This document shows, one piece after another, positions 7,069-20,568 of a stretch of DNA of 20,568 bases. The notes under the pieces were generated by a model. The model was given only the letters and a program-made list of their open reading frames with translations, was not told the origin of the DNA and did no database searches. The stretch is from Candidatus Aenigmatarchaeota archaeon (lineage in GTDB: Archaea > Aenigmatarchaeota > Aenigmatarchaeia > Aenigmatarchaeales > JACQIB01). Where the stretch lies: contig JBHIDR010000014.1 in assembly GCA_046760225.1 (NCBI GenBank), positions 1-20,568 of the forward strand, given 5' to 3'. Position 1 is the first letter of the stretch. Each line of letters opens with the position of its first letter. Position numbers and translations under genes: made by a program.

Positions 7069-7199
7069 CTTTATTCTCTAGTATACTTAGGTGCATGGTG
7101 ATGCTGTACCAATCAGAATGAACAGCGACGTTTTCTTAGGCATACTTATAAAACAAAAGAAATTTAAACTGCTATTCACAAAGCTAAAGGGGTGCTTTG

Positions 7200-8711
7200 A
7201 TGCGATTTGAACTTGAGGGGCGATTCAAGATGAGCAAGGATGTATCCAAGCTCGAGAAGGAGATAGGAGAAATAATAAAGACTGCGAATGAGACATTTTC
7301 AAAGGGCATTGATAAGGATAAAGCAGGCAAGGTCACAGAGTGGAGTGTAGAGAAGGATGTTGTGAAAATGAAAATAGTTTCTGGTGGTGTTCCAAGGCCC
7401 CATGAATTCATGATAAGGCTGAGGAAGCTGATAGGAGAAAAGCTGGGCAAGGAGCACAAGATAGGAATCAGGAGCATGTCAATAGAGAAGTATGTGATAG
7501 AAATCGAGGTTGAGATGGAGCCACTTGGTCCAATAAAGATGCCTTATGTTGAATCTGTTGATGTAAAGGACAAGAAAGCAGTGCTTGTGCTGAAGGACAT
7601 TGACGAGGATTTCTTGCAGAAGAACATTATTGACAGGCTGATTAACCTCGTGGACGACAAAATAAAAAACCAGCATTATGCAGGAAAGGGGGAGTTCAGG
7701 GAAGAGTTGTGGAGAAGTGAGGAAAAGACAATGAATTACAATGGAGATCCTGCAGCTGATATGGAAAAAATGGGATGGATAAGAAGAGCTCCAGGCAAAG
7801 GACAATGGGTATACGGGAGGGAGGTAACTGCTCTCTTCAACATCATGAAGAGATTGATGATAAAGTACATGTACAAGCCTCTTGGATTTCATGAAATGAT
7901 ATTTCCGAAATTCGAGCCTTGGGAAATCACGAAAAAGAGCGGACATGCTAAGAACGTGTATAATGTTGCATACTTTGTAATGGTGCCCAAGGACTCCAGT
8001 GAGGAGAACTGGGAAGACGTTGGCGACCACTTCAAGATTACAGGAGATATAGACAAGAAAGGGGTAATTGATAGAGTGGACTGTGTTGGAATACTCTCTT
8101 ATGCACAGTGCCCTCCTTTCTGGCCATTTCTTCAGGGCAGGACAATTGATGAAACCACATTGCCGCTGAAGACATATGACTGGTCTGGACCAACCTATAG
8201 GAACGAGTCAGGAGGAACACATGGTCTTGACAGGATAGAGGAATTTCACAGGGTTGAGACCCTCTGGGTTGGTACAAAGCAGCAAACAATTGATGTCTGG
8301 AACCAGACAAAAGAGGCATTCAAGAAAATATTTTATGAAGTGCTTGACATGGAGATTAGGATAGCTCTTGTTGCTCCATGGTGGATGGCACATGCTGGTC
8401 TTGCCTCTCAGAGAGGAAAGGAAGGACTAGGAACATATGATTTTGATGCTTATCTTCCTTATAGAGGCGATAGGAGCACTGAGTGGTTGGAGATGCAGAA
8501 CACAAGTTCCAATGGGCCAAAATATCCAAATGCATTTGCTGTCAAGGGAAGGAAAGAGGAGCTGTGGTCTGGATGTTCTGGAGGCAGTATACAGAGATGG
8601 ATAGCTGCATTCCTTGCCCAGAAAGGCCTTGATCCAAAGAATTGGCCAAAGGAGGTAAGGGAAATGTATGAGGAAGAACTTAAAGGAATGAAAGAGTTGA
8701 AGTTCTGCTAG
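7200..8711 (+). CDS. serS: Seryl-tRNA synthetase, atypical methanogen type (Zn-dependent)
   Basis: Mixed alpha/beta N-domain (MRFELEGRF...PRPHE), YAQCPPFW, motif 2 SGPTYRNESGGTHGLDRIEEFHRVE, PWWMA, EWLEMQN and motif 3 LWSGCSG...RW. GGGGTG RBS upstream. Confidence 0.92.
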   Translation: MRFELEGRFKMSKDVSKLEKEIGEIIKTANETFSKGIDKDKAGKVTEWSVEKDVVKMKIVSGGVPRPHEFMIRLRKLIGEKLGKEHKIGIRSMSIEKYVIEIEVEMEPLGPIKMPYVESVDVKDKKAVLVLKDIDEDFLQKNIIDRLINLVDDKIKNQHYAGKGEFREELWRSEEKTMNYNGDPAADMEKMGWIRRAPGKGQWVYGREVTALFNIMKRLMIKYMYKPLGFHEMIFPKFEPWEITKKSGHAKNVYNVAYFVMVPKDSSEENWEDVGDHFKITGDIDKKGVIDRVDCVGILSYAQCPPFWPFLQGRTIDETTLPLKTYDWSGPTYRNESGGTHGLDRIEEFHRVETLWVGTKQQTIDVWNQTKEAFKKIFYEVLDMEIRIALVAPWWMAHAGLASQRGKEGLGTYDFDAYLPYRGDRSTEWLEMQNTSSNGPKYPNAFAVKGRKEELWSGCSGGSIQRWIAAFLAQKGLDPKNWPKEVREMYEEELKGMKELKFC

Positions 8712-13153: not shown

Positions 13154-13837
13154 TCAGAACACGCGGAATTTTGAGACTTCTTTCAGTCCTTCTTGTGCTA
13201 TCTGGAACTCTATGTGTTTGTCCTCTGGAAGCGACCTTGCCTTTGCTATGCGGGCAATTCTGCAGCCTGTTCTTCCTGCATGGCTGAGTTCGACCATGTT
13301 CTTTGACCACCATTTGACAATGTTCTTGCTGGAGAGCTCTATTTTTCCTGATTCAAGGTCAGCATAGACCTGATTGGTAACAAGTATGGGTATGTTCCTG
13401 TCCCTTGATATCTTTGACAGCAGGGCAAGCTGTGATGCAAGCTCACGGTTAACCTCATTGAAATTATTGTCTGTTATTTCCAGCCTCCACAGAGCAACAA
13501 TGCTGTCAACAACTATCAATCCTATATTCTCTTTTTTACAGAGCTTTTCCAGCTTCATCATGCTCTCGTTCTGCTCTTTCCATGACTTTGGTTCAAGAAG
13601 GATTATGTTCTTTGCTGTTTTCTTCCCACTGCTTATCTGTTCCAGCCTTTCCAGGGAAAAGCCACCTTCTGTATCAACAAAAACAGCCCTTTTCCCTGAC
13701 TCTACACAGGACACGCATGCCTGCAGAGCCACCTGGCTCTTGCCAGATGCAGGTACACCGTAAAAATTGGTTATGCAGCCCGATTCTATACCACCATTCA
13801 GAAGTTTGTCAATTGGTGTGGCAACAGTAAGTTTCAT
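13154..13837 (-). CDS. radB: DNA repair and recombination protein RadB
   Basis: 227-aa RecA core with no N-terminal HhH domain: IDKLLNGGIE, Walker A GVPASGKS, FVDTEGGFS, Walker B LIVVDS, VTNQV. Confidence 0.9.
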   Translation of the reverse strand: MKLTVATPIDKLLNGGIESGCITNFYGVPASGKSQVALQACVSCVESGKRAVFVDTEGGFSLERLEQISSGKKTAKNIILLEPKSWKEQNESMMKLEKLCKKENIGLIVVDSIVALWRLEITDNNFNEVNRELASQLALLSKISRDRNIPILVTNQVYADLESGKIELSSKNIVKWWSKNMVELSHAGRTGCRIARIAKARSLPEDKHIEFQIAQEGLKEVSKFRVF

Positions 13838-13860
13838 GACATTAGATATGCTGTTAAACC

Positions 13861-13867
13861 TTTTATA
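13861..13867. promoter_or_regulatory. Candidate bidirectional TATA box (TTTTATA / TATAAAA)
   Basis: 24-30 nt from radB ATG 13837 (-) and 22-28 nt from ATG 13889 (+). Confidence 0.5.
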
Positions 13868-13888
13868 GATTAAATTCGAATACAGGAT

Positions 13889-14851
13889 ATGGTAAGTGAG
13901 GCAAAGGTAAGGCGTGCGCATAATTTCAAGGAACTTTATTCTTCAATAAGAGAAGCCGGTGAAATAAAGGGAGCAAGAAAGAGCTATAAGCCGGTTGAAA
14001 TTATAGGAATCATAGATAAAACAAGGAAAGGAAAGTTGGATACGAGCTATGTAACAAGAACCGCCGGATTAAGGAGTAAAGTTGAAAGTCTGATAAAAGA
14101 GGAACACACCAGAAAAATCAGGGGTGCTAGAAACTTAGACGACCTTTATTCTGTTCTTGATGATATAGGGAAGATAAAGGGGAGAGCTAAAGACCCGAAA
14201 ACAGGTAAGGAGCCTGAATTTTCAGCTAACTACTTGAAGAAACAGATAGGGGAAGTGAAGAAAGGAAAGCACATATCTTATGTTACAAGCTCAGATGGTC
14301 TTAGAGACAAGGTAGCTGAGTTGGTAAGTGATTTCAGGGAGGAACTCAAAGAAGAGGGATATAGCCGCCAGGGCATCTTTATGCTAAAGGGATTTCCTGA
14401 GAGAAAGGAAGGAATAAAGCTTCATGTTTCTTCTAATCTTGAACATTCCAGAGCAGTAAGAGAAATAGTATTGCCCATACTTCAAAAATACGACGTTACA
14501 CACAAGATAGTGAAAAGTGGTGTGGGACTCAGGGATGTCATGGGAGCCAAAGAGTCACAGAAAGGAAAATTCATAACAGTATATCCCGAAAGTGATAAAG
14601 AAGCAGTGAAAATTGCCAGAGAAATAGATAGTGCATTGGCAGGAAAGAAATTACATGGACCAAAGATAGCGAATGAAAATAAATTGCCTGGTGGAAAATC
14701 GGGTCTTGTTTTCTACAGGTATGGTGCATTTAAAGGAGAATACGTAACAGGCCCCAAGGGAGAGAAAATAAAGGACGATAAGATAAGGTACGGTATTCTA
14801 CCACCTGTACCAAAGGGATTTAATGACCCTTTCAAGGAGAAGAAAAAATAA
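13889..14851 (+). CDS. Two N-terminal ~65-aa repeats fused to a phosphoSer/Thr lyase-like domain (LanKC/LanL N-terminal, OspF/SpvC-like)
   Basis: GIKLHVSS, THKIV, QKGKFITVYP, GPKI and VFYRYGAF match the order of the class III/IV lanthipeptide synthetase lyase motifs GWKIHVS, FK, GKFITIYP, GP and YRYG. Confidence 0.75.
   Translation: MVSEAKVRRAHNFKELYSSIREAGEIKGARKSYKPVEIIGIIDKTRKGKLDTSYVTRTAGLRSKVESLIKEEHTRKIRGARNLDDLYSVLDDIGKIKGRAKDPKTGKEPEFSANYLKKQIGEVKKGKHISYVTSSDGLRDKVAELVSDFREELKEEGYSRQGIFMLKGFPERKEGIKLHVSSNLEHSRAVREIVLPILQKYDVTHKIVKSGVGLRDVMGAKESQKGKFITVYPESDKEAVKIAREIDSALAGKKLHGPKIANENKLPGGKSGLVFYRYGAFKGEYVTGPKGEKIKDDKIRYGILPPVPKGFNDPFKEKKK
13904..14326 (+). repeat. Protein-level tandem repeat, aa 6-69 and 76-146
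   Basis: KVRRAHNFKELYSSIREAGEIKG...KG...SYVTRTAGLRSKVESLI versus KIRGARNLDDLYSVLDDIGKIKG...KG...SYVTSSDGLRDKVAELV. Confidence 0.85.
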
Positions 14852-14881
14852 TTTTTAATAAATTAGATGCTCATTATTCTT

Positions 14882-16216
14882 ATGAAAATAAGTTTTGTAG
14901 TTGATAAGAAAGGCATAACAGCAGAGCTCTTGGGAGACAAATACAGGCTGGTTTATCCTGCTGAAATATGGAAGGGATTCAGGCAAAAGGAAATATTCCT
15001 TGATAATACGGCTTATCTGCTTACAGTAAACATGCCCATGGTTTCGAACTTTAGGGCGCTTGAGTACAACACATCACTTCCGCTGTTCAAGCCGTTCTTT
15101 GACAAGCTGATTCTTGGAGGAATACCTGGTGCAGTTGATGCTTACAGAGCTAACACGAAAAAGACAATAAAGAAGTTTCTTTCAATCAGATACTCATTCA
15201 AGAACAGCAGGATAAAGATGCCAGAGAAGGCAAGAATAAAGACAAACAACAGGGCTGTTGTGGGTTTTTCCTGCGGAAAGGACAGCCTGCTCTCATTGGG
15301 TGTTTGCAATGAGCTGGGACTTGATCCAGTGATGACGTACATAAACGATACTGTTTCTCCTGGAGAGAACACCTTGAAATTAAGATTCACAAGAAGGATA
15401 GCAAGGAAATTTGGTCTGGATCATGTAATTGTGAGGAACGAGATGGAGAAGCTGAATGATTTTGAGACATGGGGAACTCCAGAGACCTGCCTAGGCTATA
15501 GCCACATGCTTGCTAGCTTTTGCTTGATATCACTTCCCATTGCCCAGCATTTCAGCGCTAACAGTATAGTATTGGGATGCGAGCAGGAATTCAACCACCG
15601 GTTCAAGAACAAGGATGGCATAATGACCTATCCTTCATTTGACCAGACAAGTGAGAGTGTTAAAGGTCACAGTGCAATGATCCAGTGCCTCTCGAACAAC
15701 AAGATAGGAGTATCAAGCGTCATAGAGCCACTGTGTGATATGGCGATATTGAAAATACTTTACCATAGGTATCCTGAGCTGGCGAAATTCCAGGTAACAT
15801 GTGGTGAGCTCGATGCAAGCAAAGAGCCCAGATGGTGTCATGAATGCTATGATTGTACTGACACCTTCATAACGCTGATGGCTCTGGGAATAAACCCGAA
15901 AAAAGTAGGTTTTCACAAGAACCTGCTCAAGAAGAAGTACAAGAAATATTATCTTATTTTTGGTGGAAAAAAGCTTCCCAGGCATTGCATTACAAAGGAT
16001 GAAAGAGACGGGGAACTGCTATTCCTTTACCTTGCGCACAAGAGCGGGTTCAGAGGATATCTGATAGACCTATTCAGAAAGAAGTTCCTTGAAGAAACAA
16101 AGAAAAGGGAAGACGAACTTCTGAAGAAGGAACTCAAGATAACAGAGCCCGTGACAATGCCAGCCAAACTGAAGAGACAAGTGATGAGCATCTACAAGGA
16201 AGAGCTGAACCGATAG
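14882..16216 (+). CDS. PP-loop (N-type) ATP pyrophosphatase with Cys cluster, MurL/QueC-like
   Basis: AVVGFSCGKDSLL (SGGKDS variant), IVLGCE, VSSVIEPL and QVTC...RWCHECYDC. Start is 14882 or 14867. Confidence 0.7.
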   Translation: MKISFVVDKKGITAELLGDKYRLVYPAEIWKGFRQKEIFLDNTAYLLTVNMPMVSNFRALEYNTSLPLFKPFFDKLILGGIPGAVDAYRANTKKTIKKFLSIRYSFKNSRIKMPEKARIKTNNRAVVGFSCGKDSLLSLGVCNELGLDPVMTYINDTVSPGENTLKLRFTRRIARKFGLDHVIVRNEMEKLNDFETWGTPETCLGYSHMLASFCLISLPIAQHFSANSIVLGCEQEFNHRFKNKDGIMTYPSFDQTSESVKGHSAMIQCLSNNKIGVSSVIEPLCDMAILKILYHRYPELAKFQVTCGELDASKEPRWCHECYDCTDTFITLMALGINPKKVGFHKNLLKKKYKKYYLIFGGKKLPRHCITKDERDGELLFLYLAHKSGFRGYLIDLFRKKFLEETKKREDELLKKELKITEPVTMPAKLKRQVMSIYKEELNR

Positions 16217-16269: not shown

Positions 16270-16631
16270 ATGGTCAAGATTGTAGTTAAGAAGAAGGGAG
16301 GCAGGACAGCAATACTAATAAGCTTTGACACTGACTCCAGCAAATTCAGATCGCGCTCAGAGAGGAACAGGTTCTTCTCCAAGTTGCACGGGAGAAGACA
16401 AATCATTAAAAGAGAGAAGCGCAGATATGTATACCATAGAAGCGGCATACTGGACGAGGTGCCGCATATTAAAGTTGATAATTCAGTATTCATAGTTGCA
16501 ATGGAGCACCTGAGAAGGATGGAGGAATTTTTCAATAAATGGGAGGACAAGGTGATGTTCAAGACATTCCCTGTGCTTCTGAACGAGAGACAGGTGAAGA
16601 AACTCGAAAAAGCAAGGGAGGTTGAAACAGA

Positions 16632-16635
<4 letters not shown>
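16270..16635 (+). CDS. Small basic protein with Cas2/VapD/PaaX-like ferredoxin-fold signature
   Basis: ILISFDT (compare hhhYDI), a RNRFFSKL helix, and KVDNSVFIV (compare xVQxSVF). Confidence 0.55.

Positions 16636-20568
<3,933 letters not shown>

Follow-up and report, generated by a model that had tools for sequence, protein, structure and literature searches.

A kinase-less phosphoserine/phosphothreonine lyase domain joined to an undescribed tandem repeat module in an Aenigmatarchaeota archaeon

Eliminylation, by which phosphorylation sites are lost irreversibly, is known from a handful of effectors of animal and plant pathogens and from lanthipeptide synthesis. What, then, might a lyase domain of this kind do in a genome-reduced archaeon in which hardly any protein kinases are found? 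The question is raised by one gene in a stretch of DNA of 20,568 nucleotides (the window, analysed at its full length) from Candidatus Aenigmatarchaeota archaeon (GenBank assembly GCA_046760225.1, contig JBHIDR010000014.1, positions 1 to 20,568, forward strand), which a preliminary description had presented as encoding a stand-alone lyase. In the encoded protein, the C-terminal half genuinely belongs to the lyase fold of class III/IV lanthipeptide synthetases (LanKC/LanL), which is related to the SpvC/OspF effectors. The explanation that we favour, at a probability of roughly 55%, is that the gene product is a soluble two-part protein, an active lyase targeted by N-terminal repeats and serving conflict or host manipulation by attacking phosphoproteins that the kinases of another organism have produced, with no role in lanthipeptide synthesis. 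The gene and its parts are as follows.

13889 to 14851, stop codon included, plus strand: the whole gene, for a 320-residue two-part protein (tandem repeat module and lyase domain), from the list of open reading frames (ORFs)
13916 to 14101, plus strand: repeat unit 1 (aa 10-71) of a module of about 62 residues, from an iterated hidden Markov model (HMM)
14126 to 14332, plus strand: repeat unit 2 (aa 80-148), from the same iterated HMM
14330 to 14848, plus strand: the lyase domain as delimited by its fold, about aa 148-320
14396 to 14767, plus strand: core of the phospho-Ser/Thr lyase domain (Pfam RamC_N, aa 170-293), from Pfam and fold comparison

The ORF begins at the first ATG, five codons past an in-frame stop, and its translation contains every motif that had been listed for it, namely GIKLHVS (K177, H179), H205-K206, GKFITVYP (K227, Y232), IANEN (E263) and FYRYG (R277). 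Full-length relatives are 39-49% identical to the protein.

The assignment of the C-terminal half is supported by both sequence and structure, and the resemblance goes well past what chance would give. RamC_N (PF25816) matches aa 170-293 with an E-value of 2.9e-22 and 79.5 bits against a cut-off of 27, and no other family passes in a Pfam scan of the protein; the HopA1 family (PF17914) gives no match. The NCBIfam models for LanL and LanKC are matched through their N-terminal 120 or so positions only (E 2e-24 and 2e-20, respectively), with scores of 85.9 bits (cut-off 650) and 73 bits (cut-off 575). A sequence search of the PDB returned class III/IV lanthipeptide synthetases only, at E-values from 7e-11 to 6e-6. 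An AlphaFold2 model of the full protein, built from a 51-row alignment (mean predicted local distance difference test score, pLDDT, 94.4; predicted template modelling score 0.85), was compared with solved structures by VIA-align and Foldseek, and the VIA-align results (Z score, root-mean-square deviation (rmsd) and number of aligned residues) were as follows.

CuvL (8CAR): Z 18.6, rmsd 2.3 Å over 166 residues
ThurKC (8SAM): Z 18.5, rmsd 2.6 Å over 163 residues
SalKC (9UGQ): Z 17.0, rmsd 2.9 Å over 161 residues
SpvC (2Q8Y): Z 9.9, rmsd 3.3 Å over 147 residues
HopA1 (4RSW): Z 8.2, rmsd 3.3 Å over 149 residues
LxmY (9DK1): Z 7.9, rmsd 3.6 Å over 141 residues
First unrelated structure: Z 6.3, rmsd 3.5 Å over 80 residues

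Foldseek produced the same ranking, with E-values of 1e-8 to LanKC/LanL lyase domains and of 3.5e-3 to 1.4e-2 to SpvC/OspF. The lyase fold that had been proposed from motifs is thus borne out by the RamC_N match and by these Z scores, and the Foldseek comparison suggested at the time shows that the model superposes on both SpvC and the LanKC lyase domains. The chain ends, as described earlier, at aa 320, 27 residues beyond the RamC_N match, and has neither a Pkinase nor a LanC domain. The term 'stand-alone lyase' is apt in that no kinase, LanC or precursor accompanies the domain, and it needs amending in one respect: the N-terminal half is an undescribed tandem repeat that had been overlooked, and since half of the protein consists of this repeat, it is a two-part protein rather than a bare lyase domain.

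Is the domain likely to be catalytic? Residue equivalences were taken from a phmmer alignment to the ThurKC chain, in which a constant offset of three residues fits all seven ThurKC positions, and the roles of the residues from the available part of PMC10604976, where the catalytic and phosphate-binding set of ThurKC comprises K65, H67, K94, K117, D152, R163 and R191. Conservation among the kinase-less relatives introduced below is included in the list.

14417 to 14425, plus strand: codons bearing K177 (ThurKC K65, SpvC K104; Lys in 67 of 69 kinase-less relatives) and H179 (ThurKC H67, SpvC H106; His in 65 of 69)
14501 to 14506, plus strand: codons of H205, the mark of the kinase-less branch (His in 61 of 69 kinase-less and Phe in 39 of 42 kinase-fused domains), and of K206, the presumed catalytic base (ThurKC K94, SpvC K136; Lys in 69 of 69)
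14567 to 14569, plus strand: K227 (ThurKC K117, SpvC R148; kept in 69 of 69 kinase-less relatives)
14675 to 14677, plus strand: E263, at the place of ThurKC D152 and SpvC D201 in the alignment
14717 to 14719, plus strand: R277 (ThurKC R163, SpvC R213; kept in 68 of 69 kinase-less relatives)
14780 to 14782, plus strand: K298, at the place of ThurKC R191 and SpvC R220 (Arg in 66 of 69 kinase-less relatives)

Judged by its residues, the active site is complete, with two conservative changes (Asp to Glu and Arg to Lys). It had been cautioned that the expected Asp is replaced by Glu263 and that activity could therefore be doubted. Glu does occupy the Asp site, and the doubt is largely removed by the finding that it is the commonest residue there among the other kinase-less domains (39 of 69, with Asp in 25), compared with Asp in 41 of 42 kinase-fused domains. 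Within the window protein's own family of seven rows, position 263 is Asp in five and Glu in two, position 298 is Arg in five and Lys in two, and position 205 is His in all seven. Because between 65 and 69 of the 69 kinase-less domains retain each of the catalytic positions other than 263, these domains are probably active enzymes, and most of the concern over Glu263 disappears. It may be supposed instead that the protein is a pseudoenzyme, in which the lyase fold has been kept for phospho-Ser/Thr binding without turnover and serves as an adaptor or inhibitor. The Glu in place of the Asp of characterised enzymes, the Lys at 298, the lack of R277 in one family member and the many repeat-only proteins, which suggest binding roles, are all in keeping with such a protein. 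We regard it as very unlikely, since K177, H179, K206 and K227 are invariant within the family and kept in 65-69 of the 69 kinase-less relatives, as one would expect if they serve catalysis and not just binding, and since Glu is the majority residue of the kinase-less branch at position 263.

The placement of the domain among its homologs was based on an exhaustive protein search that returned 1357 proteins at E-values up to 1e-3, the best 150 of which were examined; the lyase-bearing proteins among these 150 were scanned against Pfam, and 133 lyase domains entered a quick maximum-likelihood tree rooted at its midpoint. All 42 kinase-fused domains (16 with LanC and 26 of lyase-kinase architecture) fall within one clade of 57 rows with a support of 95 in the Shimodaira-Hasegawa-like approximate likelihood ratio test (SH-aLRT), the remaining 15 rows being two LanKC-type proteins (P0142 and P0154) and 13 RamC_N-only proteins of 167-309 aa that score 127-181 bits. 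The window protein is not part of this clade; it groups with its full-length relatives in another, of seven rows (SH-aLRT 92), and its RamC_N score of 79.5 bits compares with 110-201 bits for the kinase-fused forms. A table of sites separates the kinase-less from the kinase-fused branch by His versus Phe at position 205. The possibility that the gene is a fragment of a split LanKC, which had been named earlier as a reason for abandoning the proposal, is excluded by the position of the protein outside the clade that holds all 42 kinase-fused rows in the quick tree and by the lack of any LanC found in the genome.

The kinase-less domains of the set recur in the company of other modules. In five proteins (P0023, P0033, P0042, P0057, and P0150) the domain follows an eCIS_core domain (DUF4157; eCIS, extracellular contractile injection system), and in two (P0062 and P0125) it follows a pretoxin-HINT domain; three more (P0035, P0066, and P0100) have an FHA domain in the same protein, P0076 carries RamC_N next to a calcineurin-like phosphoesterase, and several of these domains are embedded in giant proteins of up to 4005 aa. 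According to the available part of PMC8213781, eCIS toxins have an N-terminal DUF4157/eCIS_core domain and a C-terminal toxin. In the five eCIS_core and two PT-HINT proteins, the place of the C-terminal toxin is taken by a kinase-less RamC_N domain that is close to that of the window protein; the window protein differs from them in having the repeat module instead of these delivery domains. The fusion of relatives to toxin-delivery domains lends an effector-like role of the window protein some support, of an indirect kind.

Two further RamC_N-bearing loci were observed in related material. A 258-aa protein from another family of the same class (L012, 1153-1929, G065:C36) has one degenerate repeat-like stretch and a RamC_N domain (44 bits) with Phe-Lys instead of His-Lys. 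A RamC_N-like segment is also embedded in a giant protein (L010, 61-7737) encoded on a contig of a Candidatus Iainarchaeum archaeon; the protein is highly charged and at least 2558 aa long, and a YGTL-containing stretch further along it presumably resembles a domain of the gamma-glutamyl-cyclotransferase type. When contigs were scanned for relatives of the window protein, a single-protein query gave 84 pattern matches, none of which was a relative, and an alignment query gave two loci.

What is the N-terminal half? The iterated HMM detected 78 units of about 62 aa in 38 of the 161 retrieved proteins, with Y-x-P-x-E-L and T-R-x-x-G-L-R-x-K-V as the conserved stretches; the second unit of the window protein has an extra loop (about aa 99-110) that is not in its relatives. 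The unit matches no Pfam or NCBIfam family. Modelled alone, the repeat module reaches a pLDDT of 90.8, and its fold was compared with several collections: the best VIA-align Z was 4.5, with none at Z of 5 or above among 48,161 chains, the best Foldseek E-value against the PDB was 0.64, and the best against BFVD was 0.046, to an uncharacterised Alteromonas phage protein, none of these matches being convincing. In the ESM Atlas, aa 1-160 gave no usable feature match, and all structure rows fell under the bar. The module could thus be assigned to no known fold, which does not prove that its fold is new.

The unit also occurs alone, in small proteins of two or three units, and its place relative to the enzyme differs between proteins. 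It stands N-terminal to RamC_N in the window protein's family and in P0017, P0028, P0073, and P0019, and C-terminal to it in P0068. A position that varies in this way is more readily expected of a binding module than of a signal for export at the N-terminus, and we take the repeats to be most likely a module that brings the enzyme to its target. Domain partners were sought among the best 150 of the 1357 proteins, and a profile search for longer repeat-bearing proteins gave one match. In P0021 a PP2C phosphatase is followed by the repeat unit, in P0158 the unit precedes a HopA1-family domain, and in P0152 it follows a transglutaminase-like core, so that, of the three partners with a Pfam annotation to which the repeat alone led, two are enzymes that erase Ser/Thr phosphorylation, although the numbers are small. 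In P0077 (aa about 30-360) and P0109 (aa about 330-650), the repeats are preceded by a common conserved region of about 300 aa that matches no Pfam or NCBIfam family and may be a further enzymatic partner of the repeat.

Could the organism supply such a lyase with substrates of its own? The genome, which RadB and an intein-bearing Cdc48 mark as archaeal and whose small size would suit a CPR/DPANN lineage (0.85 Mb, 83 contigs), is 83% complete, a limit that applies to every absence given for it here, and a search of the whole of it found one RamC_N domain and one repeat-bearing ORF. The search for an orphan kinase or LanC elsewhere in the genome that had been recommended found no LanC (PF05147), an absence that in an incomplete genome is no proof, and only Bud32 and Rio1 as kinases; no APH-type or Hanks-type kinase besides these two, and no FHA or PP2C domain, was found. 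Across the 20.5-kb window, the scanned ORFs include no kinase, LanC, transporter or protease family and no precursor-like gene, in agreement with the earlier observation that no precursor, kinase or transporter is nearby.

These results bear on two alternatives. In the first, the protein is the lyase half of a split dehydratase for a peptide that is made by ribosomes and modified after translation (RiPP), working on a small peptide together with a separate kinase, in the manner of class V LxmK/LxmY or thioamitide pathways. Split kinase/lyase systems do exist, LxmY matches the model at Z 7.9, clusters with a stand-alone kinase and lyase are mentioned in the available part of PMC4159009, and a MurL-like gene, whose product might take part, lies 15 bp downstream on the same strand. 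This arrangement is nevertheless highly improbable in view of the lack of LanC and of any APH- or Hanks-type kinase beyond Rio1 and Bud32 in the genome, the lack of a precursor-like or transporter gene in the window, the position of the domain outside the kinase-fused clade, and the pairing with the MurL-like gene, which is not conserved at the loci L019 and G002 described below. In the second alternative, the substrate is not a protein at all, and the enzyme acts on a small phospho-ester such as free O-phospho-serine or -threonine, or on a phosphoseryl group borne by a carrier or by the head group of a lipid. Protein kinases that could make protein substrates are scarce in the organism, which would suit this proposal; on the other hand, every characterised member of the fold has a peptide or a protein as its substrate (available part of PMC10604976; SpvC/OspF entries), and the fusions with FHA, with PP2C and with toxin-delivery domains indicate that the targets are proteins, so that a non-protein substrate seems quite unlikely.

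The distribution of the gene is that of a patchy accessory gene. RamC_N occurs in 3 of the 301 sampled genomes of the phylum and the whole protein in 2 of 41 relatives. All five family relatives have radB and cdc48 adjacent without the lyase gene (with the p121 gene between them in four), and a tblastn search of the radB-cdc48 loci of relatives found no remnants of the lyase (best E 9). A metagenome contig (L019) carries an orthologue with 44% identity in the identical place, and a further copy (G002) has a different location and unrelated neighbours. Between the window and L019, RadB is 63% and the lyase protein 44% identical, and the latter therefore evolves faster. At 39.8%, the GC content of the lyase gene is not an outlier (ORF mean 44.6%, z -1.2), so there is no compositional sign of recent transfer.

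The gene diverges from radB, which starts at 13837 on the minus strand according to its RadB model match and a corrected frame, across a short spacer.

13838 to 13888, no strand assigned: divergent spacer of 51 bp between radB and the lyase gene, defined by sequence, with a promoter function that is presumed

A single TATA-like element lies in this spacer at about 13861-13871, some 20 bp before the ATG, which is consistent with the earlier suggestion that the two genes have a promoter region in common; as a functional promoter the spacer remains a candidate. Four sequencing runs contain the sequence, all of them DNA from one hydrothermal-vent study, with no RNA run among them. The other genes of the window encode STT3, a NOG1-type GTPase, a methyltransferase, RtcA, Hsp20, a beta-CASP nuclease, two aminoacyl-tRNA synthetases, a topoisomerase, a protein of the OMP-decarboxylase family (pyrF-like), RadB and Cdc48, and the scanned ORFs belong to housekeeping families or to conserved small proteins that are also found in lyase-free relatives. 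No contractile-injection genes occur in the window.

Several neighbours have features of their own. The 449-aa protein encoded 15 bp downstream of the lyase gene (14867-16216, plus strand) has a PP-loop-like SCGKDS motif and resembles MurL, the ATP-dependent UDP-MurNAc-L-Ala-L-Glu epimerase (ESM Atlas 0.97, structural template modelling score 0.8, weak NCBIfam MurL match), with no PDB sequence match. The archaeon that carries it is of a wall-less type. Neither L019 nor any of the five family relatives has the gene at this locus, and a link between it and the lyase was rejected, the gene being absent beside both the L019 orthologue and the G002 copy. Two small basic proteins of 121 and 91 aa (16270-16635 and 16632-16907, plus strand), without a Pfam family, keep their place between radB and cdc48 in relatives both with and without the lyase. 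The Cdc48/VCP-type AAA ATPase gene (16912-20568, plus strand, running off the end) has at least two intein-like insertions, and the L019 orthologue of Cdc48 is uninterrupted (792 aa). The same-genus radB orthologue L024 (G001:C12:26-706, minus strand) contains one in-frame TAA inside the match, which may reflect either a broken gene or a mistake in the assembly. Finally, the seryl-tRNA synthetase at 7197-8711 (plus strand) is of a rare type with a tRNA_bind_4 N-terminal domain.

A third alternative is that the protein is an endogenous eraser, an irreversible off-switch or quality-control enzyme for phosphoproteins of the cell itself, such as those that Rio1 or Bud32 produce or the autophosphorylated kinases themselves. 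The protein appears cytosolic, with no signal peptide or transmembrane segment, its neighbours are housekeeping genes, it has the 51-bp spacer in common with radB, both Rio1 and Bud32 are present in the genome, and its composition is genome-like, all of which would fit such a role. It is, however, not a core gene, with RamC_N in only 3 of 301 genomes of the phylum, and it is missing at the locus in five of five family relatives that retain radB and cdc48; moreover, no FHA, PP2C or Hanks-type signalling kinase was found in the genome, and destroying Ser or Thr residues of an essential protein would be a costly mode of regulation. An endogenous role is hence unlikely in our estimate.

We therefore return to an active, repeat-targeted lyase that acts on foreign phosphoproteins. 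Its substrate, by homology, would be phospho-Ser or phospho-Thr in a peptide or protein, selected by the repeats, from which the phosphate would be removed by beta-elimination. K206, acting as base, would take the alpha-proton, as can be supposed from ThurKC and SpvC, H179, aided by E263, would protonate the leaving phosphate, and the phosphate would be held by K177, K227, R277 and K298. Dehydroalanine (Dha) or dehydrobutyrine (Dhb) would be left behind, and the site could then never be phosphorylated again. We infer a foreign target because the cell has almost no kinases and no FHA or PP2C domains that could be found, because the gene is patchy, and because sister domains sit on toxin scaffolds; the beta-elimination activity is proposed by analogy with characterised members of the fold, and the targeting by the repeats is likewise a proposal. 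A role as a counter to kinase toxins, which had also been suggested, appears chemically unattractive, as elimination destroys Ser/Thr and does not restore it.

A number of observations weigh against this proposal. The genome is incomplete, and a kinase or LanC could be among its unassembled parts. The neighbours of the lyase gene are housekeeping genes with no apparent immunity-like gene among those of the window (the downstream gene is MurL-like), the GC content is unremarkable, and the protein has no signal peptide or transmembrane segment and no known delivery domain in Pfam. The link between the repeat and phospho-erasers comes from few fusions (one each with PP2C, HopA1 and a transglutaminase), and fusions of the repeat with RamC_N were favoured by a query containing both parts. 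Backbone support in the quick, midpoint-rooted RamC_N tree is weak, and in one family member (P0015) Thr replaces R277.

How does the protein compare with known systems? The lyase domains of LanKC and LanL enzymes (ThurKC, 8SAM/8SAO; CuvL, 8CAR; SalKC, 9UGQ; PneKC) belong to the same Pfam family (PF25816, above cut-off), have the fold in common with the window protein (Z 17-18.6, rmsd 2.3-2.9 Å over 161-166 residues), and have seven catalytic or phosphate-binding positions that are all occupied in it. Nevertheless, these enzymes come with a kinase, LanC and a precursor, none of which was found with the window protein (genome 83% complete); they have Phe and Asp where it has His205 and Glu263, and they lack its N-terminal repeat module. 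The protein is thus not a LanKC or LanL, because the kinase, LanC and precursor were looked for and are not there. The type III effectors OspF, SpvC and VirA have a related fold (SpvC 2Q8Y, Z 9.9 over 147 aligned residues) and are stand-alone, kinase-independent enzymes that act on another organism's phosphoproteins, the last of which would be a presumed likeness. They differ in being only 12-16% identical in structural alignments, with no sequence-level family match, and in being delivered by type III secretion, whereas the window organism is archaeal and offers no type III secretion context. The N-terminus of OspF/SpvC presumably carries a docking motif for mitogen-activated protein kinases, at the place where the window protein has its repeat module. 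By analogy, the window protein would work most like OspF/SpvC, as a kinase-independent lyase.

HopA1 (4RSW) and LxmY (9DK1) are stand-alone lyase subunits with a more distantly related fold (Z 8.2 and 7.9, respectively). The HopA1 domain is fused to the same repeat unit of about 62 aa in P0158, and differs in belonging to PF17914, which does not match the window protein. LxmY acts in complex with a dedicated kinase, and no such partner was found in the window genome.

A comparison in archaea is offered by the BLES03-like predicted phosphothreonine lyases (Khater and Mohanty 2014, PMC4159009, available part), likewise predicted eliminylating enzymes but a separate family that is only structurally related, in contrast to the window protein, which is LanL-like by sequence. 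In the portion of that 2014 survey available to us (PMC4159009), SpvC- and LanL-like lyases are placed 'exclusively in bacteria'. Among the papers listed, literature searches on phosphothreonine lyases and archaea yielded no description of an archaeal LanL-like lyase, those on polymorphic toxins, DUF4157, eCIS and contractile injection yielded no mention of a phosphothreonine lyase, and those joining DPANN with lyase terms, OspF with polymorphic toxins, or RamC_N/PF25816 yielded nothing relevant. No lyase is mentioned among the eCIS toxins in the main text of PMC11297309 or in the available part of that of PMC8213781.

A wider proposal may be put forward tentatively, and we think it rather doubtful as a whole: the repeat of about 62 aa would be an undescribed targeting module that has repeatedly been attached to phospho-erasers (RamC_N lyase, HopA1-type lyase and PP2C phosphatase), the kinase-less His-Lys RamC_N branch would be a widespread eliminylation weapon that bacteria deploy through contractile injection and polymorphic toxins, and in the present case a DPANN archaeon with virtually no kinome would use it to silence the kinase signalling of a host or competitor irreversibly.

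The catalytic domain of the window protein is a known one; the kinase-less branch to which it belongs and the module joined to it are undescribed, and the host is unexpected. If the findings hold, the existence of a large branch of lanthipeptide-type lyase domains that lack a kinase and have a sequence signature of their own would change the present picture, as would the occurrence of members of this branch on toxin-delivery scaffolds and of one in a genome-reduced archaeon without signalling kinases. Stand-alone lyases would also be of practical interest for putting dehydroalanine into proteins, and the repeat module that travels with the domain would offer a concrete handle for finding targets. 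Taken together, and if true, these observations would mean that eliminylation serves as a general tool in conflict and symbiosis among microbes.

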